DNA from: an uncultured Thalassospiraceae bacterium
Lineage (GTDB): Bacteria > Pseudomonadota > Alphaproteobacteria > Rhodospirillales > JABHCV01
Length of the DNA stretch: 64,000 bases
NCBI GenBank assembly: GCA_964344645.1
Contig: CAYFOJ010000013.1
Span: 61 to 64,060 of the forward strand
Direction: 5' to 3'
The notes beneath the pieces were generated by a model. That model worked only from the letters and a program-made list of their open reading frames with translations. It did no database searches and was not told the DNA's origin. This document shows, in pieces, positions 28,418 through 37,950 of the stretch. Each line of letters begins with the position of its first letter. Position 1 is the stretch's first letter. The position numbers and the translations under genes were made by a program.

Positions 28418-28819
28418 TTAGCCCACCGCGTCCGTCTTCTTCAGGAACTGTTCCACCATATCGGTCAGGACATGAATATCGAAGGGTTTCGGCAGCACCC
28501 CGTCGGCTCCCATCTGGATCGCCGCCCGCAGGGCCCGTTCCGCCGGCATGTCGGCAAAGCCGCCTGAAATGGCGATGATGGGGGCATGGGGAACATGTTT
28601 GCGAATCCGCTGGATGCCTTCTATGCCGCCCATTCCGGTCATGAAGATGTCGATGATCACGAGGTCGTATTTCATTTTCTCGAAGTTATCGAGGGCATCC
28701 TCGACGTTGAAACAGACGGTGGCCTGATATTGCCGTCCGTTCAGCGCGTAGGCGACCACGTCGGTCAGGGCCGCATTGTCGTCAATGATCAGAACGTTGC
28801 CCTTCAACTGGATGGTCAT
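28418..28819 (-). CDS. single-domain response regulator (REC)
   Basis: LIIDDN, LVIIDIFM, IAISGG and LPKPF motifs. Confidence 0.87.
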   Translation of the reverse strand: MTIQLKGNVLIIDDNAALTDVVAYALNGRQYQATVCFNVEDALDNFEKMKYDLVIIDIFMTGMGGIEGIQRIRKHVPHAPIIAISGGFADMPAERALRAAIQMGADGVLPKPFDIHVLTDMVEQFLKKTDAVG

Positions 28820-28820
28820 G

Positions 28821-30047
28821 TCATCCCCCTCCCCCCCGGTTGTTGCGCGGGACGATCTCGACGCCATCGGCAACCCGGTCGCTGGGATGGAGGATGACCC
28901 GCGTCCCTACTTCCAGCCCTTCCAGCACCTGCATGGTCCGGCCGTTGGAACGCCCGGCCCGGACCGCCGTCCGTTTCGCCCGTCCCTGCTCGAGGACGAA
29001 GACCGCCCATTCCCCGCCATGGCGGAAGACGGCGCCGACGGGAACCTGCAACACGTCCTCGGCCCGCCACTCGCCGATTCGCGCCTCGACCCGGAAACCG
29101 TGGCCGAGGGCGGGCCGGTCTTCCGGCGGCGCCGTGAAATCGATAATCACGTTGACCCGCTGTTCCTCGATGCCGAGGGCCGAGACCTTGGTGAAACCAT
29201 AGGGCTCGATGCGCCGCACCTTGCCTTCCGCCGTCGATCCGCCGCCCCAGCCGTGCAGGGTCACCGACGCCCCCTCACGGACCTTCATGGCCTGGGAGGA
29301 AAGCAGATCGACGACCACCTCCAACCGGCCGGGGTCGCCGATCTCCATCAACGGGCTGGAGCGTTCGACCACCCCCTCGCTTTGCCGCAACAAACGCAGC
29401 ACCCGGCCATTCACCGGGGCGCGCACCTCGACGCAGCAGGTCGCCCGGCCTTCCGTCACGCTGGCCGGCGCGATCAGGGCGGCGATGGCCGTTTCCAGTT
29501 CGAACTCGCGGACCTTCAAGGTCGCCAGGGCGCTGTCCACGGCGGCGCTCTGGGTCTTGGCCGAGAGTTCCGCCTGATCGAACTCCCGCTGGGAAATGGC
29601 CTGCTTGGGCAGCAGCTCCCGGGCCCGCCCCAGATTGGCCATGGCGTAGGCCTTTTCCGCCCTCACCCGGTCGTATTCGGCCCTGGCCAGGGCCTTGGCC
29701 GCCTCCGCCGCCTTGATGCGGGCTTCCGCCTGGGCGGCGGCGCGGGCGTCGAGGAACTGGGGCTGCGCCGGCTCGATGGTGGCGAGCAGGGTTTCATCGG
29801 CGCTAACCGCATCGCCGACATGCACCTCCAGGCGGCGAAGCCTTCCCGCCACCGGGGTGGAAACCGTATAGATGTCGTGGACCCGGGTCAGGCCTTCGCC
29901 GTTGACGGTCACCTCCATGGGGCCCCGGGTCGCCCGGGTCAGGTCAACGGCGACGGGGACCGGCTGGAAGGCCCAATAACCCAGCCCCGCCAAGGCGGCG
30001 AGGGCGGCGATGAGACCGAAAACGGTCTTGACGGTCGAAACGGTCAT
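28821..30047 (-). CDS. MacA/HlyD-like periplasmic adaptor (membrane fusion protein)
   Basis: N-terminal anchor; biotinyl-like hairpin VRAPVNGRVL; KVSALGIEEQRV. Confidence 0.88.
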   Translation of the reverse strand: MTVSTVKTVFGLIAALAALAGLGYWAFQPVPVAVDLTRATRGPMEVTVNGEGLTRVHDIYTVSTPVAGRLRRLEVHVGDAVSADETLLATIEPAQPQFLDARAAAQAEARIKAAEAAKALARAEYDRVRAEKAYAMANLGRARELLPKQAISQREFDQAELSAKTQSAAVDSALATLKVREFELETAIAALIAPASVTEGRATCCVEVRAPVNGRVLRLLRQSEGVVERSSPLMEIGDPGRLEVVVDLLSSQAMKVREGASVTLHGWGGGSTAEGKVRRIEPYGFTKVSALGIEEQRVNVIIDFTAPPEDRPALGHGFRVEARIGEWRAEDVLQVPVGAVFRHGGEWAVFVLEQGRAKRTAVRAGRSNGRTMQVLEGLEVGTRVILHPSDRVADGVEIVPRNNRGGGG

Positions 30048-30059
30048 GGCGGTAGTACC

Positions 30060-32423
30060 CTACTCTCTTGTTTTCAACGCTTCGATGAGATTCATTGTAT
30101 CAAGTTTTCGCCGGATAATCAGTCCCGAAACCACGGCGGCGGCGAGAACGACGGCGACGGACCAGCCGTAGGTGTCCCGGTCGATCACCATGGGCAGGCG
30201 GAACAATTCCGTGTCCATGGACTGAACCCACAACACCGCCTGGCCATAGCCGAGAAGACAGCCGACCGGGACCGCGACGAGAACCAGCAGGGCCAGTTCG
30301 CCCAGCAGGATGTAGGCGGTTTCCCCCCGGGTGAAGCCCAGCACCCGCAGGCTGGCCAGTTCACGGGCGCGTTCGGAAAGGGAAATGCGGGCCGAATTGT
30401 AGACGACCCCGACGGCGATGATGACGGCGAAGGCGATGTTGAAGGTGATCATCAGGCCCATGTTTTCCTCGATGGTGTTCTGAAAGCTTTCCACCAGCAC
30501 CTCCTTGATGGCGGCCCCGGCGACGGAGGGCATGCCCTTCAGCTTTTCATACAGGGCCTCCGCCCCGGCCTGATCGATTTGCAGGACCGCCCCGTTGACG
30601 GACGGGGCTTCCCCCAGCAACCGCCCCAGGGCCGCCAGGTCCATATAGACCGGGGTGGCGATGTATTCCTCGATCAGGGCCGTCACCGGCACCTTCAACA
30701 CCGGGCGCCGGCCCTCCTTGACTTCCACGGTGACGATGTCGCCGCGCCCGACCCGCAGCAACTCGGCCATCTTGGTCGATAGGGCAAGGCCGCTTCCGGG
30801 CAGGGGAACCGGTTCCAGACCGGCGCCGAGAGGTCGGAGCAGCGTCGCCTCGCCGCTCAGGCCGATCAGGCTTTCGTGGCGCTCGCGATGCCCGGCGACG
30901 AGCCGCACGGGGACGGAGCGAAGGGGCTCCGCGGCCAGCACGCCGGGCAGGTTGGCGACCTCTTCCATCGCCGAACCGTCCCGGGTATCGGTAAAGGTCA
31001 CCATGACGTCCTGCCGGTGGGCCTGAAAGAAATGCACCTGGACGAGGTGATTGAGGGAGTCGAGGAAAAACTGACTGCTGACGAGGATGGACACCGCCAG
31101 CGCCGTCCCCAATATGCCGAGAGAGGAGCGCAGCGGCCAGCGCAGGGTATGGCGCAACACCATCCTGTTGGTTTCCGAAAGGCGCTGCAGGCGCAACAGC
31201 CGCTCGATCCAGGCGGTGCGATAGGCGGTCGGCGGCGCCGGGGTCATGGCGACGGCGGGCATCAGGCGGGCGGCCCGCCACACCGCCGCGAGCGCGCCCA
31301 GCAATCCGACGGCGACGCTGAACAGAACGGCGGCGGCGTAGAGCCCGCCATCGACGATGTAATACAGGAACGGGAAGCGGAAATAGGCGGCATAGAGTTC
31401 GGTCATTCCCCGCCCCAGCCAGGTGCCGCCGGACACCCCCAGCAGCAAACCGAGGCCGACGATGGCGAGCGCCAGCTTGATGTAGACCCAGGCGACCGAG
31501 GTATCGGAATAGCCGAACGCCTTGAGCAGGCCGATCTGCCCCCGTTCGGTTTCGATCAGGCGGGAGACGACCATGTGCAGGAGAAAGGCGGCGATGGAGA
31601 AAAACAGCGGCGGCGCCACACTGCCCATGGCGCGAAGCTGGGAAATCTCGTTATCGACGAACCAGTTGGAAAGCTGGGTCTTGCGGCCATAGGCGCGAAT
31701 GCCCCCATAGGGCTCCGTCAGCCCGTCCAGGGCCTGCAGGACGTCCGCCTCGACCGCGTTCCTCTCCAGGGTCATCACCGCCTCGGTGAAGGAGCCGGCC
31801 AGGTCGAAGGCGGCCTCCAGCGCCCGTCCGCTCATCCAGATCACGGCGAAGCGCTTGTCGTCGGGCATCAACGCGCCGGGACCGAGGGCATACACGTATT
31901 CCGGCGACAATACGATGCCGACAATGGTCAGCCGGCGTTTGTGGCCGTTGATGACGGCGGCAAAGCCATCGCCGGGCTCATAGCCGTGGGCCTGGGCGAA
32001 GGCCTCGTTGACGACCACGTCCCCGGCCCGGCCGCCGTCCGGAAAACGCCCCTGGCGCAAATGCAGGGCGTTGAGCAGCGGTTCGCCGGTTTCCGGCAGG
32101 GAATGCAAACTGGCGCTGGCCGGTTCGGGCAGGCCGGGAATATCGAGAATGACGTTCCTGACGATCCGGGAATCCACCGTCCGCACCCCGGGAATGGCCG
32201 CCATTTCGTCGAGCAGCCTGCGGGGGGCCCGCTTCAGGGGGGCGAACACCTGGGCGAAGCGGTAGCGTTCGTAATAGGCGTCGCGGGTTTCCTCGAGGGA
32301 ATAAAGGGTGCCCAGGCTCATGATGTACATGGCGACGCCGGAGCCGATGACCAGGGCGATGGCCAGAACCTGCGGCTTCAGCCGCCACAGGTCTCGCGCA
32401 AGCTTGCGGTTGAGGGGGCTCAT
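30060..32423 (-). CDS. ABC transporter permease, double FtsX/MacB-type
   Basis: Two FtsX repeats ([12 protein letters not shown] and [14 protein letters not shown]). Confidence 0.9.
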
Positions 32424-32429
32424 CGCCGC

Positions 32430-33170
32430 CTACCAGATCAGGTCCGCCACCGGACACCGCGTTTCGTTGCGGCGCACGTCGACGATCCGGCCGTCGCCGA
32501 AGGTGACGACCCTGTCGGCCATCTGGGCGATGACGGCGTTATGGGTGATCAGGGCGGTGGTCGTTCCGAGCGACCGGTTGGTCCGCTCGATGGATTCCAG
32601 CACTTGCACGCCGGTCTTGCTGTCCAGGGCCCCGGTGGGCTCGTCGCACAACAGGATGTCCGGCCGCTTGGCGATGGCCCGGGCGATGGCCACCCGCTGC
32701 TGTTCGCCGCCCGACAACTGGGCCGGAAAGTGATCGAGCCGGTCCTGCAACCCGACCATGGTCAGGGCCTCGGCGGCGGGCAGCGGGTCCGGCGAAATAG
32801 AGGTGACGATGGTGACGTTTTCCCGCGCCGTCAGGCTGGGAATCAGGTTGTAGAACTGAAACACGAATCCCACATGGTCGCGCCGGTAGGCGGTCAGTTG
32901 CCGGTTGCCGAGAGCGGTCAGTTCCCGGTCCCGAAAGAACACTTGCCCGGCGGTCGGATTGTCGAGGCCGCCGAGGATGTTCAAAAGGGTGGACTTGCCG
33001 CTCCCCGATGGCCCCAGCAGGACGATCAGTTCGCCCTCGAACAGGTCCAGGCCGACCCCGCGCAGGGCATGAATGGTCACGTCCCCGGTATGATAATCCT
33101 TGGTGATATCCCGGGCTGACAGGGTAACCGGGCTTTTCCCGCCCGCGTGCTCGGCGTCTGTCTGAACCAT
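32430..33170 (-). CDS. ABC transporter ATP-binding protein (MacB/LolD-like)
   Basis: [23 protein letters not shown] and DEPTGALD motifs. Confidence 0.93.
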
Positions 33171-33198: not shown

Positions 33199-33528
33199 TC
33201 AACAACAGTCCTTTTGCCTTTCGCAACAAGCCCGTATGCCCGGATGATTGTCGCAGCAATCGTTCAGGAGAAAGGACATCAAGTCCCCCAGACTCTCCAC
33301 GTTGGCCGTGTAGACGATGTTGCGCGATTGCCGGCGCGATGTCACCAGGCCGGCGTTCTCCAGGGCCGACAAATGGAACGACGCCCTGGACGAGGCCGCC
33401 TCGACATGCTCGCCCACCTGCCCCGCCGTCGCGCCCTCCGGGCCGCAACGGACAAGGTAACGGACCGCCCGCAGGCGGGTCTCCTGGGACAGGGCGGACA
33501 GCATGGCGAGATAATTTTCTTCATCCAT
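33199..33528 (-). CDS. arsR: ArsR/SmtB family regulator with C-terminal CC motifs (AfArsR-type)
   Basis: [10 protein letters not shown]...R.LV...P.G..AG....SFHLS.L..AGLV..RRQ.R.I.Y.AN, then DCC...CC...CC. Confidence 0.82.
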
Positions 33529-33558
33529 ATTTCAATAACTCTTGAATAATTGAATTAT
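33529..33558. promoter_or_regulatory. palindromic operator(s) between arsR and gst
   Basis: TTCAA-taactc-TTGAA (33531-46) and ATAATT-g-AATTAT (33546-58), abutting the arsR start codon. Confidence 0.55.
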
Positions 33559-33613
33559 CAGTATATCTTACCCTCCACACCAGTCAAACCATGACCGCAA
33601 GGAAACCCCTCCC

Positions 33614-34315
33614 ATGAAAATCGTCAGCTTCAAGATCTGCCCCTTCGTCCAGCGGGTCACCGCCCTGCTGGAAGCCAAGAACCTGGACTACGAAATTGAA
33701 TTCATCAGCCTGAAGGACAAGCCGCAATGGTTCCTCGACGTCTCGCCCCATGGCCAGGTTCCCATCCTGATCACCGACAACGGCACGGTCCTGTTCGAAT
33801 CCGACGCCATCGCCGAATACCTGGAAGAAGCCTTCCCGCCCCTGCAGGCGGATTTGTCGCCGGAAGACAAGGCGGTCAACCGGGCCTGGAGCACCCTGGC
33901 GTCGAAAAACTACCTGGTGCAGTGTAGCGCCCAACGCAGCCCGGACAGCGAGACCCTCGAGGAAAGAAGCGGAAAGCTCGCTCAGGCGTTCGATAAAATC
34001 GAGGCGCGCCTGGACGGCGGCCCCTATTTCGGTGGCGAGACCATCGGCATGGTCGACATCGCCTGGCTGCCGCTGCTGCACCGGGCGTCCCTGATGGAAC
34101 GCCATTCCGGTTTCGATTTTATCGGCCAGCGGCCGAAACTGAAGCAGTGGCAGAACCGGTTGCTGGCCACCGGGCTGGCGGAAAAATCCGTCGCGGCGGA
34201 CTTCGACGCCGCCTTCGCGGACTTTTATCTCTCAGACGAAACCTTCCTTGGGCGCGGTGGGGAGACGGGCTGCTGCGCCCCCAAGGCGGCGGCGGGCGGG
34301 TCTTCCTGTTGCTAA
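33614..34315 (+). CDS. glutathione S-transferase family protein (omega/lambda-like, CPF active site) with Cys-rich tail
   Basis: ICPFVQRV, SP.GQVP.L and LFESDAI.EYL motifs; ends GCCAPKAAAGGSSCC. Confidence 0.88.
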   Translation: MKIVSFKICPFVQRVTALLEAKNLDYEIEFISLKDKPQWFLDVSPHGQVPILITDNGTVLFESDAIAEYLEEAFPPLQADLSPEDKAVNRAWSTLASKNYLVQCSAQRSPDSETLEERSGKLAQAFDKIEARLDGGPYFGGETIGMVDIAWLPLLHRASLMERHSGFDFIGQRPKLKQWQNRLLATGLAEKSVAADFDAAFADFYLSDETFLGRGGETGCCAPKAAAGGSSCC

Positions 34316-34316
34316 C

Positions 34317-36083
34317 CTACTCCATGGCTTCCAGTTCCTCGACGAAGCCGGCGATAACGTCCAGTCCCCGTTTCCAAAATCCGGGGTCCGATGCATCCAG
34401 CCCGAAGGGGGCCAGCAGGTCCCGGTGACGGCGGGTTCCCCCCGCCTTCAGCATGTCCAGGTATTTTTCCTGGAACCCGGAATGGCCCGCCTGGAAGACG
34501 TCATAAAGGGAATTGACCAGGCAATCGCCGAAAGCGTAGGCGTAGACGTAGAACGGCGAGTGGACGAAATGGGGGATGTAGGCCCAGAAGCTGCGGTAGC
34601 CGTCGTCCAGACGGATGCCGTCACCCAGGCTTTCCCCCTGCACCTCCATCCAGATATCGCCCAGCCGTTCCGGTGACAATTCCCCCGCTGCCCGCTCGTC
34701 GTGGACGCGGGTCTCGAAACCGTGGAAGGCGATTTGCCGCACGACCGTATTGAGCATGTCCTCGACCTTGCCGGCCAGCAGAATGCGCCGCCGCGCCGGG
34801 TCGTCCTCGCCGTCGAGCAGGGAGCGGAAGGTCAGCATCTCGCCGAACACGGAAGCGGTTTCCGCCGTCGTCAGCGGGGTATCGGCCATCAACGTCCCCT
34901 GCCCCGCCGCCAGCACCTGATGGACACCATGGCCCAGTTCATGGGCCAGGGTCATGACATCCCGGGCCTTGCCGTGAAAATTCATCAGGATATAGGGATG
35001 CACGGACGGCACCGTTGAATGGGAAAAAGCGCCCGAATCCTTGCCCGCGCGCAACTGGGCGTCGATCCAGCCCCCTTCGAAGAAGCGCCCGGCGACGCCC
35101 GCCATGGCGGGATCGAACCGGCGATAGGCGTCGAGCACGGTGTCGCAGGCCGACCCCCAGTCGTAGAGCCGGGTGTCGTCTCCCGGCAGGGGGGCGTTGC
35201 GGTCCCAGTAGTCGAGGGCGTCGACGCCGAACCATTTCGCCTTCAGCCGGTAGTAGCGGTGGGACAGCCTGGGGTAGGACTCGCGCACGGACGAGACCAG
35301 GGCGTCGACAACCCCGTCCTCCACCTGGTTGGACAGGTTGCGTTCGGAAATCGGCCGCGGATAGGCGCGCCAGGAATCCTCGATGGCCTTGTCCTTGGCC
35401 AGGGTGTTGGTGATCAGGGAAAACAGCTTGATGTTGTCGTCGAGAACCCGCCCGAGAGCCTGGGCCGCGCTTTTCCGCTTGCCCCCGTCCCCGTCCGACA
35501 GCAGGTTCAGCACGTCGGCCATGCTCAGTTCTTCGCCGTCGACGGAAAAACGCAAGCCGGCCTCGGTCTCGTCGAACAGCCGCACCCAGGCGGCCCGGCC
35601 GCTGACGGACTGCTCGTGCAGCAGCTTTTCAAGCTCGTCGGACAATTGATGCTCGCGAAAGGCCCGCACCTCCCGGATCCAGGGGGCGTAACGGGCCGCC
35701 AGCGGGCTTTCCAGTTGCCGCTCGAGAACCGCCGTTTCAAGGCGATTCAGTTCCAGGCGGAAAAACAGGGTCCGGGTGGAAATATCGGTCACCCGCTCCT
35801 GCACGGTCTGATAAAAGCGGCCCCGCTCGCCGTCGCCGACATCGGCGGCAAACAGCAACTGGGCGTAACTCATGGCCCTGTAGAGAAGTTCGGTGATGGC
35901 CTCGTATTCGGCCACGGCCCGCCCCAGGGCATCACCGTCCAGGTCCACAAGGCATCCCTGATATTGGGTTTCAAAGGCCACGGCGCGCTCTTCGGCCCGG
36001 GCGAAATCCCGCTCCAGCTCCGGCGCGTCGGGGGCGCTGTAAAGATCGTTCAGATTCCAGGCGGGCAGTTTGTGGCCGGTCAT
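34317..36083 (-). CDS. pepF: oligoendopeptidase F (M3B)
   Basis: P.WNL.DLY, K.SGAF, TLAHELGHGVHQ (HExxH) and FYVYAYAFG motifs; GGAGAGG RBS before the ATG at 36083. Confidence 0.92.
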   Translation of the reverse strand: MTGHKLPAWNLNDLYSAPDAPELERDFARAEERAVAFETQYQGCLVDLDGDALGRAVAEYEAITELLYRAMSYAQLLFAADVGDGERGRFYQTVQERVTDISTRTLFFRLELNRLETAVLERQLESPLAARYAPWIREVRAFREHQLSDELEKLLHEQSVSGRAAWVRLFDETEAGLRFSVDGEELSMADVLNLLSDGDGGKRKSAAQALGRVLDDNIKLFSLITNTLAKDKAIEDSWRAYPRPISERNLSNQVEDGVVDALVSSVRESYPRLSHRYYRLKAKWFGVDALDYWDRNAPLPGDDTRLYDWGSACDTVLDAYRRFDPAMAGVAGRFFEGGWIDAQLRAGKDSGAFSHSTVPSVHPYILMNFHGKARDVMTLAHELGHGVHQVLAAGQGTLMADTPLTTAETASVFGEMLTFRSLLDGEDDPARRRILLAGKVEDMLNTVVRQIAFHGFETRVHDERAAGELSPERLGDIWMEVQGESLGDGIRLDDGYRSFWAYIPHFVHSPFYVYAYAFGDCLVNSLYDVFQAGHSGFQEKYLDMLKAGGTRRHRDLLAPFGLDASDPGFWKRGLDVIAGFVEELEAME

Positions 36084-36159
36084 TTTCCTCTCCATGCTTG
36101 CCCGAACCATATAAGACTGGATAGAAAGGAGGGCAAGGATAACAGGGAGGGTTGGAAAA

Positions 36160-37950
36160 ATGACCGCACGCACCGCCGAAACATGGCCCAATTTGGCCAC
36201 CATGTTCTTCGAACAAGCCGCCTTGAAGGGCGACGCTCCGTTTCTCTGGGCCAAGGAAGGTGGCGCCTACACGTCACGCAGTTGGAACGACGCGTCCCGG
36301 CAGGTGACGGCGCTGGCGCAGGGCCTGAGGGGCCTGGGGGTCGAGCCCGGCGACCGGGTCCTGCTGGTTTCGGAAAACCGGCCCGAATGGCTGATCGCCG
36401 ATGTCGCCATCATGGCCGCCGGGGGCATCACCGTCCCGGCCTATGTCACCAACACGGAAGCCGACCACCGCTACCTGATCGAAAACAGCGGCGCCAAGGC
36501 GGCCATCGTTTCCCGCGCCAAGCTGGCCGAGCGGGTCCTGCCGGCGGCGCTGAAGACCGGCGGCCTGGAAGACATCATCGTCATCGAAATGCCGGACATC
36601 GACCAGCATCTCGGCGTCAACCTGCACCTGTGGGACGACATCCTGCAAGCGGGGGAATCCGGCGGCGGCGACATCATCAAGGAAGCCGAAGGCCTGAAAC
36701 GGGACGCCACCGCCTGCATCATCTACACCTCGGGCACCGGCGGCGCACCCAAGGGGGTGATGCTGCATCACGGGGCCATCCTGCACAACTGCGTCGGCGC
36801 CCGCGACGCCCTGGCCGAGTTGGGCCTGGGGGACGAAGTGTTCCTGTCCTTCCTGCCCCTGTCCCATTCCTACGAGCACACGGCGGGACAGTTTTTCCCG
36901 ATTTCCATCGGCGCGCAGATCTACTACTCGGAGGCCGACACCCTGGCCACCAACATGCTGGAGGCCCGCCCGACCATCATGACCGCCGTTCCCAGACTCT
37001 ACGAGACCTTCCATTCGCGGATTTCCCGGGGCATCAAGAAACAGGGCGGCCTGAAGGAAAAGATGTTCGAGAAGACCGTCGCCCTGGGCAGCAAGAAAAT
37101 CGAGACCGGCAAGCTGGGAGTCCTCGAAGGCATCCTCAACGCCATCCTCGGCGTTCTCGTCCGCAAGAAGGTTCAGGGACGCTTCGGCGGCCGGTTGAAG
37201 GCCCTGGTTTCGGGCGGCGCCCCGCTCAACCCCGAGATCGGCATGTACTTCATGTCCCTGGGCCTGCGCATCCTGCAAGGCTACGGCCTGACGGAATCGG
37301 CACCGGTGATTTGCGTTAACCGACCCTCGCAGATCAAAATCGATACCGTCGGCCCGCCGCTGACCTCGACGGAAGTGAAAATCGCCGACGACGGGGAAAT
37401 CCTGACCCGGGGCGAACTGGTCATGCAGGGTTACTGGAAAAACGAGGAAGCCACCGCCGAATGCATCCGCGACGGCTGGCTGCATACGGGCGACATCGGC
37501 CATCTGGACGATCAGGGGCGCCTTAAGATCACCGACCGCAAGAAGGACATCATCGTCAATTCCGGCGGCGACAACATCGCCCCGCAAAAGGTCGAGGGCA
37601 TCCTCACCCTGGCCCCGGAAATCGCCCAGGCCATGGTCTACGGCGACAAGCGCCCGCATCTGGTGGCGGTCATCGTCCCCGACGTGGAATGGCTCGAACA
37701 GTGGGCCAAGGACAACGGCAAGGAATACGACCTGCCGGCCCTAGCCGGGGACGAGGATTGCCTCAAGGCCCTGTCGCAAATTGTCGAACAGGTCAACGCC
37801 GGCGTTTCCAATATCGAGAAGGTGCGCCGGTTCGTCATCGCCGAGGAAGCCTTCACCATCGACAACGCCCTGATGACCCCGTCCATGAAGATCCGCCGCC
37901 ATAAGATTTTCGAAATCTACGGCGAACGGCTTATCGCGCTTTACGGCTAA
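36160..37950 (+). CDS. long-chain fatty acid-CoA ligase (AMP-dependent synthetase)
   Basis: IYTSGTGGAPKGV, QGYGLTES, LHTGDIG and ITDRKKDII..SGG.N motifs. Confidence 0.9.
   Translation: MTARTAETWPNLATMFFEQAALKGDAPFLWAKEGGAYTSRSWNDASRQVTALAQGLRGLGVEPGDRVLLVSENRPEWLIADVAIMAAGGITVPAYVTNTEADHRYLIENSGAKAAIVSRAKLAERVLPAALKTGGLEDIIVIEMPDIDQHLGVNLHLWDDILQAGESGGGDIIKEAEGLKRDATACIIYTSGTGGAPKGVMLHHGAILHNCVGARDALAELGLGDEVFLSFLPLSHSYEHTAGQFFPISIGAQIYYSEADTLATNMLEARPTIMTAVPRLYETFHSRISRGIKKQGGLKEKMFEKTVALGSKKIETGKLGVLEGILNAILGVLVRKKVQGRFGGRLKALVSGGAPLNPEIGMYFMSLGLRILQGYGLTESAPVICVNRPSQIKIDTVGPPLTSTEVKIADDGEILTRGELVMQGYWKNEEATAECIRDGWLHTGDIGHLDDQGRLKITDRKKDIIVNSGGDNIAPQKVEGILTLAPEIAQAMVYGDKRPHLVAVIVPDVEWLEQWAKDNGKEYDLPALAGDEDCLKALSQIVEQVNAGVSNIEKVRRFVIAEEAFTIDNALMTPSMKIRRHKIFEIYGERLIALYG

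Follow-up and report, generated by a model that had tools for sequence, protein, structure and literature searches.

A divergently oriented gene pair from an uncultured Thalassospiraceae bacterium, coding for an ArsR-family repressor and an omega-like glutathione transferase (GST), belongs to a widespread mobile cassette built around a GST with a cysteine-rich tail. The pair is located in a stretch of 64,000 nucleotides (contig CAYFOJ010000013.1 of assembly GCA_964344645.1, positions 61 to 64,060 of the forward strand), which is called the window here and to which positions refer unless a contig or locus is named. An earlier note on this DNA had pointed to vicinal cysteines at the ends of both proteins and had suggested a two-gene module for the reduction or sequestration of arsenicals. 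The finding is more general than could be seen from the window, and in a sister clade of GSTs the enzyme is accompanied by an extracytoplasmic function (ECF) sigma factor of the SigZ family. Tentatively, and with a probability put slightly short of even, the cassette is regarded as a self-contained pair of sensor and effector directed at a thiol-seeking metal or metalloid. For the ArsR version, the foremost candidate inducers are trivalent arsenicals, and the GST tail would be a capture and hand-off arm.

Cysteine-rich tails of the ArsR and GST proteins

The repressor gene arsR (33199..33528, minus strand) specifies a protein of 109 amino acids with a winged helix-turn-helix and three CC pairs at its C-terminus. 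The GST gene on the plus strand (33614..34315) codes for an omega-like Cys-type enzyme of 233 amino acids, which starts with MKIVSFKICPFVQR and ends with GRGGETGCCAPKAAAGGSSCC. A spacer of 85 nt (33529-33613) separates the two genes. Translation of both open reading frames (ORFs) agreed with what had been noticed before, namely three terminal CC pairs in ArsR and, in the divergent GST, an active-site cysteine in a CPF motif combined with a CC-ending tail, the C-terminal end of which is GCCAPKAAAGGSSCC. Family profiles were matched by both proteins: HTH_5/HTH_20 (Pfam) and NF033788 (NCBIfam, 58.3 bits vs a cut-off of 55) by ArsR, and GST_N_2 (4.9e-22), GST_C_2 (2.9e-12) and also GST_N_3 (Pfam) by the GST.

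The occurrence of paired CC tails on neighbouring ArsR and GST proteins is not due to chance. When stop-to-stop frames of at least 100 amino acids were collected from the whole 3.63-Mb genome, at least two CC pairs within the last 25 residues were present in 7 out of 15,588 frames. Among these seven, only the adjacent arsR and GST resemble real proteins, the rest being Arg/Pro-rich off-frame ORFs.

In ArsR, the cysteine-rich tail, which is the predicted sensor region, comprises residues 91-109 (codons at 33202..33258, minus strand) and was delimited by conservation and an AlphaFold2 model. The cysteines are arranged as C91-C92, eight residues, C101-C102, five residues, and C108-C109. Comparison with 120 homologs of 62-99% identity revealed that C91, C92 and C101 are kept in all of them and C102 in 119. 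H95-P96 is nearly invariant, C108 and C109 are found in about 80%, and C28 is present in 98 of the 120 sequences. The model, with a predicted local distance difference test (pLDDT) value of 90.5, exhibits the helix-strand order typical for the ArsR/SmtB family. Helix alpha5 spans residues 77-91 with C91 at its end and is followed by a short helix (96-102); the last residues are of low confidence.

The best match of ArsR in the PDB was AfArsR from Acidithiobacillus ferrooxidans (6J05, E 1.3e-12), a type-2 As(III)-responsive repressor, and weaker matches were obtained to HlyU and YgaV (PDB) and to BigR (NCBIfam). C91/C92 align with C95/C96 of AfArsR, and C101 is matched to C102 once an insertion of 3 residues is allowed for; the type-2 site binds As(III) through three ligands, Cys95, Cys96 and Cys102 (PMC11868830). 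Both repressors have in common a vicinal cysteine pair ending alpha5 and a later cysteine, but the spacing is CC-x5-C in AfArsR and CC-x8-CC in the window ArsR. The latter also contains a second (nearly) invariant CC pair as well as a frequent third one, and it governs a GST and not an ars operon.

Conservation of the GST was determined from an alignment of 32 homologs, which had a mean column identity of 79%. The active site is indicated by C9-P10-F11 (33638..33646, plus strand), the start of the motif CPFVQR, and all six residues of this motif (C9, P10, F11, V12, Q13, R14) are invariant. C9-P10-F11, at the start of helix 1, aligns with the CPF motif holding Cys32 in human GSTO1. K36, V49-P50 and E62-S63, which represent the glutathione-site Lys before helix 2, the cis-Pro VP and the Glu-Ser pair, are likewise invariant; in GSTO1 they correspond to KNKP, VP and ES, residues which we take to bind glutathione. 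A second invariant cysteine, C104, is found in the helix-4 region (LVQCSAQRS; 33923..33925, plus strand) and, judging from the alignment with GSTO1, would be situated near the substrate pocket.

In the AlphaFold2 model of the GST (pLDDT 89.4), residues 218-233 are below 50, a value that predicts disorder for the tail. Together with the homolog alignment, a cysteine tail of residues 219-233, CCAPKAAAGGSSCC, was defined (34268..34312, plus strand). Its last residue, C233, is invariant in the alignment, and C232 is conserved in at least 90% of the sequences. CC is present at the C-terminus in most of the 120 closest GST homologs. Tails of GST homologs contain 4-6 cysteines per about 15 residues, with NCCFSEACATDACC (GRGxxVxNCCFSEACATDACC) as a recurrent form in the family. 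The arsenical proposal had been made dependent on conservation of the cysteine tails, and loss of the tails among homologs was not observed, because the terminal cysteines of both ArsR (C91/C92/C101 throughout) and the GST (C233) are conserved.

A large protein collection contained at least 1,730 GST homologs (protein clusters), and the closest non-self homologs listed are 68-77% identical and mostly 233 amino acids long. Among representatives at 50% identity, the CC tail occurs mainly in relatives that are more than about 45% identical, with one exception at 36% (P0265). Apart from this protein, the broader group of GSTs with the motif FK[LI]CP[FY]VQR (30-40% identity) is devoid of the CC tail.

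Leishmania TDR1 (E 1.9e-25) and human GSTO1 (E 1e-23) were the best sequence matches of the GST in the PDB, at 24-30% identity, and GSTO1 was the top Foldseek match as well (TM-score 0.74). The designation as omega-like in the earlier note is borne out by these matches. The window GST begins 8 residues ahead of the catalytic cysteine, and its residue 2 aligns with residue 25 of GSTO1. In this alignment the hallmark of the omega class, an N-terminal extension of about 20 residues packing on the C-terminus, is absent, and the protein is therefore called omega-like and not filed as a member of that class. Common to the window GST, GSTO1/GSTO2 and TDR1 are the thioredoxin-like N-domain, the helical C-domain, the catalytic cysteine in CPF and the aligned glutathione-site residues. 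The window GST differs from them by the invariant C104 and by the disordered 15-residue poly-cysteine tail ending in CC. We know of no solved GST relative carrying a tail of this kind. Known reductase substrates are methylarsonate for GSTO1 and pentavalent antimonials for TDR1. Among bacterial GSTs, E. coli GstB offers a precedent for action on arsenate, reportedly having arsenate-reductase activity (Chrysostomou et al. 2015, as cited in PMC9623898). GstB is not known to be a Cys-type GST, to carry a cysteine tail or to have a dedicated regulator.

Operator, alternative regulators and distribution of the cassette

In the arsR-GST spacer, an imperfect 15-2-15 inverted repeat, ATATTTCAATAACTC-TT-GAATAATTGAATTAT (33527..33558), abuts the arsR start codon. 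The two arms are 80% complementary. A search for sigma-70-like sites yielded two, where 0.2 were expected. One of these is the putative arsR promoter (TTGACT, 16 nt, TATACT; 33560..33587, minus strand), identified by consensus match only, with 10 of 12 positions matching. Transcription of arsR from this site would start within the operator.

Relatives of the GST were then searched in one genome per species. Scanning 185,579 species revealed 419 places encoding such a protein. The best 80 loci were examined, and 78 of them hold a full-length GST ORF. In 52 of the 78 loci, a divergent arsR of the same type is located upstream. All 43 intergenic regions extracted share an operator element, which again abuts the arsR start and has the consensus TATTTCAATATCTCTTGAAATGTTGAAATATA, and in most of them a -10-like TATA box follows the operator. 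The idea of a two-gene module is strengthened by the frequent divergent ArsR and by the common operator. Besides the regulators, fixed conserved neighbours were absent from the examined loci; genes for ATP-binding cassette (ABC) ATPases, short-chain dehydrogenases/reductases and LysR regulators recur without a fixed position.

To how many genes the repressor is dedicated could be read from the distribution of the operator. A position weight matrix scan of the window genome gave a score of 51.9 at the arsR-GST site and 22.1 at the next unrelated site. In 35 other module-carrying genomes or records, a pattern scan detected essentially one site each, at the module. A wider ArsR regulon was considered and rejected, as both scans found essentially only the module's own operator. 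Since the operator is found essentially only there, the regulon consists of the divergent promoter itself, and the GST is therefore a dedicated target of ArsR. One genome (G031) contains a second exact match to the operator, beside an ORF of 274 amino acids read as nitrilase-like and a peptidase-like ORF, which looks like a chance occurrence.

In 18 of the 78 loci no ArsR is present, and a SigZ-family ECF sigma factor gene adjoins the GST gene instead. These loci belong to Oceanospirillales, Vibrionaceae, Cellvibrionaceae and a few Alphaproteobacteria. The order of sigZ and the GST gene varies, but both are on the same strand in 17 loci and divergent in one (L080). The SigZ proteins match NF007215 with E-values down to 3e-71. 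Of three proteins compared with the cut-off of 212 bits, two scored 226 and 239, and the third remained just below it (205.9). The SigZ tail consists of CC, about 17 residues and CxxC in 18 out of 18 sequences, and a linker cysteine is present in all. The GST is the sole conserved neighbour in these loci, which lack an adjoining anti-sigma gene. The same pairing was also detected on a Microbulbifer plasmid, on a Vibrio cortegadensis plasmid, and with a 48%-identical relative. Being ECF sigma factors that carry a short extension rich in cysteines at the C-terminus, the SigZ proteins belong to the ECF238 group; its characterised members, CorE and CorE2, respond to Cu, Cd or Zn via their cysteine-rich extension (PMC7826278, PMC8999054). 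By sequence reading, CorE has a CxC motif where the SigZ proteins have one linker cysteine; the window itself contains no SigZ.

Upstream of the GST gene of the SigZ-paired loci, at a distance of about 55-65 nt from its start and in either gene order, the motif CGTCTTTTT-N11-13-CGTCTT was detected in 17 of the 18 loci, and in the eighteenth (L073) a variant differing by one base occupies the corresponding position. Three more loci with the motif (L087, L088, L091) were counted as further SigZ-paired loci. The loci listed with the motif are L064, L068-L072, L074-L080, L083, L084, L087, L088, L091, L048 and L057. Elsewhere, it has one other match in all loci scanned. The bipartite motif is probably an ECF-type promoter and a candidate for recognition by SigZ/ECF238. 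On this reading, SigZ probably acts directly on the GST gene, which would be the first likely target of this kind for SigZ-type sigma factors in these bacteria.

About ten GST loci (L009, L020, L029, L033, L038, L060, L061, L065, L081, L082) have neither ArsR nor SigZ adjoining. A LysR-type regulator (L038) and a TetR-like ORF (L061) were seen among them. A third mode of GST control may exist.

A maximum-likelihood tree of 77 GSTs separated two clades with 100/98 support. One comprises 15 GSTs paired with SigZ and 1 for which no regulator was found; the other contains 48 with ArsR, 10 with none and 3 with SigZ. Given the well-supported branches, the SigZ label must have changed at least twice. 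What stays constant is the GST; its regulator has been exchanged, in each case for one that brings its own cysteine sensor. That two unrelated cysteine-sensor regulators are each dedicated to this GST suggests that the cell treats the enzyme as a specific answer to a specific thiol-reactive signal.

GST relatives are found mainly in marine Alpha- and Gammaproteobacteria, many of them from sponge, coral or cyanobacterial-mat samples. An arsR-GST cassette with the same operator is contained in plasmid pREB1 of Acaryochloris marina (NC_009926.1, 373192-374161 and across the record start; L092), which is conjugative (MOBF, MPF_T). Among 31 related genomes, the GST is present in four; three of these four are among the eight genomes of the same genus, the window's own included. 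The copies of the two other same-genus genomes are only 65-70% identical. Its presence on a conjugative plasmid and its patchy occurrence among relatives identify arsR-GST as a horizontally mobile cassette. The pREB1 GST gene spans the record origin and is missing from the gene table distributed by PLSDB.

A characterised counterpart had not been recognised in the earlier note, and none emerged here. An equivalog model for the GST is missing from NCBIfam, and the source databases name the proteins only 'GST family protein'. In the literature searched, no characterised ArsR-GST pair, SigZ-GST pairing or bacterial methylarsenate reductase was found.

Candidate signals and function of the module

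From the arrangement described above, the following mechanism can be proposed. An ArsR dimer would bind the 15-2-15 palindrome overlapping the divergent promoters and thereby repress arsR and the GST gene. A cysteine-bridging ligand would occupy the cluster of C91/C92 and C101/C102 where the dimerisation helix ends, in the position of the AfArsR site for As(III), and its binding would release the repressor. The induced GST would act as a glutathione-dependent Cys-type enzyme of the omega kind, with C9 in CPF and intact glutathione-binding residues. Its disordered poly-cysteine arm ending in CC may capture the thiol-seeking species and pass it to, or exchange it with, the C9/glutathione site, which would result in reduction, in formation of a glutathione complex or in sequestration. 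For such an arm, the C-terminal vicinal cysteines of MerA and the vicinal pairs of ArsD offer an analogy: there, a thiol-seeking ion is taken up by flexible segments and handed on, either to an active site or to a partner. The likeness is restricted to the flexible vicinal-cysteine segment, the folds being unrelated.

A link of the candidate module to arsenic is plausible in view of the AfArsR-type site, of the reactions of GSTO1 and TDR1 with arsenicals and antimonials, and of a paralogous ArsR beside an ArsP-family permease gene. Of the arsenical module proposed earlier, the omega-like GST, the conserved tails and the two-gene unit have held up, and the ArsR cysteines align with those of AfArsR; no genomic tie of the module to arsenic was found. 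ACR3, the glutaredoxin (Grx)-type ArsC and two low molecular weight phosphatases of the window genome served as BLAST queries against all ORFs of the 80 loci. ACR3 was found in none of them and ArsC in one, which was the only hit of the four queries, hence the loci provide no genomic link to arsenic genes. Control of arsenic-resistance genes, as expected of an AfArsR-type repressor, was accordingly not observed, the operator being found only at arsR-GST. Further points also weigh against arsenicals as the inducer. The arsenic functions are already covered elsewhere in the genome: because ACR3, the Grx-type ArsC and an ArsR-ArsP pair are present, none is missing. The alternative regulator is of the ECF238 type, the characterised members of which sense Cu, Cd or Zn and not arsenic. 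Finally, Zn, Cd or Hg could likewise be accommodated by the four (nearly) invariant cysteines of ArsR together with the nearly invariant H95.

The sole ArsC homolog among the loci (L074 5907-6254, from an Amphritea metagenome-assembled genome) is 61% identical to the Grx-type ArsC and is located 1.7 kb upstream of the GST on the opposite strand. In the window genome, ACR3 (C12:51519-52550; L089 7520-8551) scored 381 bits, above the cut-off. It is solitary, with neither arsR nor arsC beside it and no match to the module operator nearby. The Grx-type ArsC is encoded at C17:32892-33233. With these two genes on C12 and C17, the idea of a missing arsenate reductase was rejected. A paralog of ArsR (C4:181870-182211) has 113 amino acids, is 32% identical, and ends with KDQCCQGLPP, the CC being at the aligned position. 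It directly precedes a gene for an ArsP_1 permease of 345 amino acids (PF03773, E 1.6e-37; region C4:180840-182211), and the CC site is therefore used beside a gene of the arsenical-efflux type. To judge from N-terminal sequences, the ArsR-ArsP pair has a MerR-like regulator and a P-type ATPase resembling CopA as neighbours, and a weak operator-matrix match (20.7) lies at the start of the paralog. Five further ArsR-family ORFs were noticed (C33:52-435, C7:57042-57482, C9:87581-87931, C19:85-795, C31:24879-25898). Judged by sequence, two of them are BigR/YgaV-like (LMILC...LYGLYC) and a third is related (LMILC...IYAKC); fusions to a rhodanese-like domain and to an S-adenosylmethionine-methyltransferase-like domain were seen in one ORF each.

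If arsenicals are not the signal, buffering of Cd, Zn, Hg or Cu after the manner of SmtB-SmtA has to be considered, with a Cys4(His) repressor and a GST that is mainly the carrier of a short metallothionein-like tail and perhaps forms metal-glutathione complexes. In Synechococcus, the ArsR/SmtB repressor SmtB is divergent from the metallothionein gene, and an inverted-repeat operator lies in the common promoter region. The window pair has the same layout of divergent repressor, cysteine-rich target and operator between them. The four cysteines and H95 of ArsR, the kinship of SigZ with the metal-responsive CorE and CorE2, the 4-6 cysteines in tails of about 15 residues and the unlinked ars genes all fit such a function. 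The sensor site differs, however, being a C-terminal cysteine cluster and not the alpha5 His/Asp/Glu site; the alpha5 metal pattern DxH...HxxE was not found in ArsR residues 77-91 when sequence and model were inspected. Nor is the target a metallothionein, as it is a complete enzyme bearing a short cysteine tail; its whole GST domain, including the catalytic cysteine and the residues aligned with the GSTO1 glutathione site, is strongly conserved (the 79% mean column identity given above), beyond what a mere tail carrier would require. Moreover, among regulators of solved structure the nearest to ArsR senses As(III) and has its cysteines aligned, and no metal transporter is consistently linked in the examined loci. 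Metal buffering is considered rather unlikely.

Unlikely, too, is a module for thiol-redox or electrophile stress, in which oxidants, disulfide stress or alkylators modify the ArsR cysteines and the GST, as a thiol transferase or deglutathionylase, resolves a mixed disulfide at C9 with its tail cysteines. Cys-type GSTs of the omega class, the dehydroascorbate reductases and the lambda class are thiol transferases and deglutathionylases, and these are relatives of the window enzyme. HlyU, YgaV and BigR appeared among the weaker matches of ArsR, and ArsR-family members of the BigR and HlyU type sense via cysteine oxidation. A flexible cysteine tail could, in addition, be used as a redox relay. 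The cysteine pair of BigR-type proteins (alpha2 and alpha5) is not the conserved one here, though: C28 is kept in 98 of 120 homologs, whereas the C-terminal four are (nearly) invariant. Vicinal CC pairs are typical of metal or metalloid sites and form strained disulfides, which also argues against a redox function, and genes for thioredoxin, peroxiredoxin or the like are not consistently linked in the examined loci.

The sensor-effector pair for trivalent arsenicals can be extended to a bolder version, for which the chances appear slim. The CC arm would work like that of MerA, collect a thiol-seeking metalloid from the cytoplasm and deliver it to the Cys-glutathione site, and the GST would then represent a new kind of enzyme, possibly a bacterial reductase of methylated pentavalent arsenicals, with ArsR and SigZ as interchangeable sensors. 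To our knowledge, no gene has been assigned to the bacterial reduction of methylarsonate, MAs(V). Bacteria do reduce MAs(V) (PMC11868830). Whichever signal applies, its identification would assign a function to a large orphan clade of GSTs. The module might fill a gap in the handling of arsenic, mercury or cadmium in marine environments, and the repressor-operator pair, being compact, could be of use in biosensors.

Genes flanking the cassette in the window

Genes resembling MacAB/DevABC exporters (28418..33170, minus strand) start 28 nt after arsR on the same strand. They specify an ABC ATPase (32430-33170), an FtsX-type permease of 787 amino acids (30060-32423) and a membrane-fusion protein (28821-30047), followed by an ORF for a receiver-domain protein (28418-28873). 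On the other side, pepF (34317-36254) lies beyond the GST gene. No terminator was detected between arsR and the ABC ATPase gene.

With four genes following on the same strand after so short a gap, ArsR could be thought to regulate chiefly the exporter operon, the GST being a bystander. This is very improbable, since the link is unique to the window genome. Around the ATPase orthologs of eight relatives (64-77% identical), neither arsR nor a GST gene occurs within 1.5 kb. The ABC genes are absent from other module loci and from that of the ArsR homolog P0125 (73% identical), and the 52 loci mentioned above keep arsR with the GST and without the exporter. Because the link is not conserved, the exporter was rejected as a part of the module. 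Orthologous exporters without arsR and GST suggest that the cassette was inserted upstream of the operon, and it seems to have landed between the exporter genes and pepF. Read-through from the arsR promoter into the exporter genes is possible, and would be secondary.

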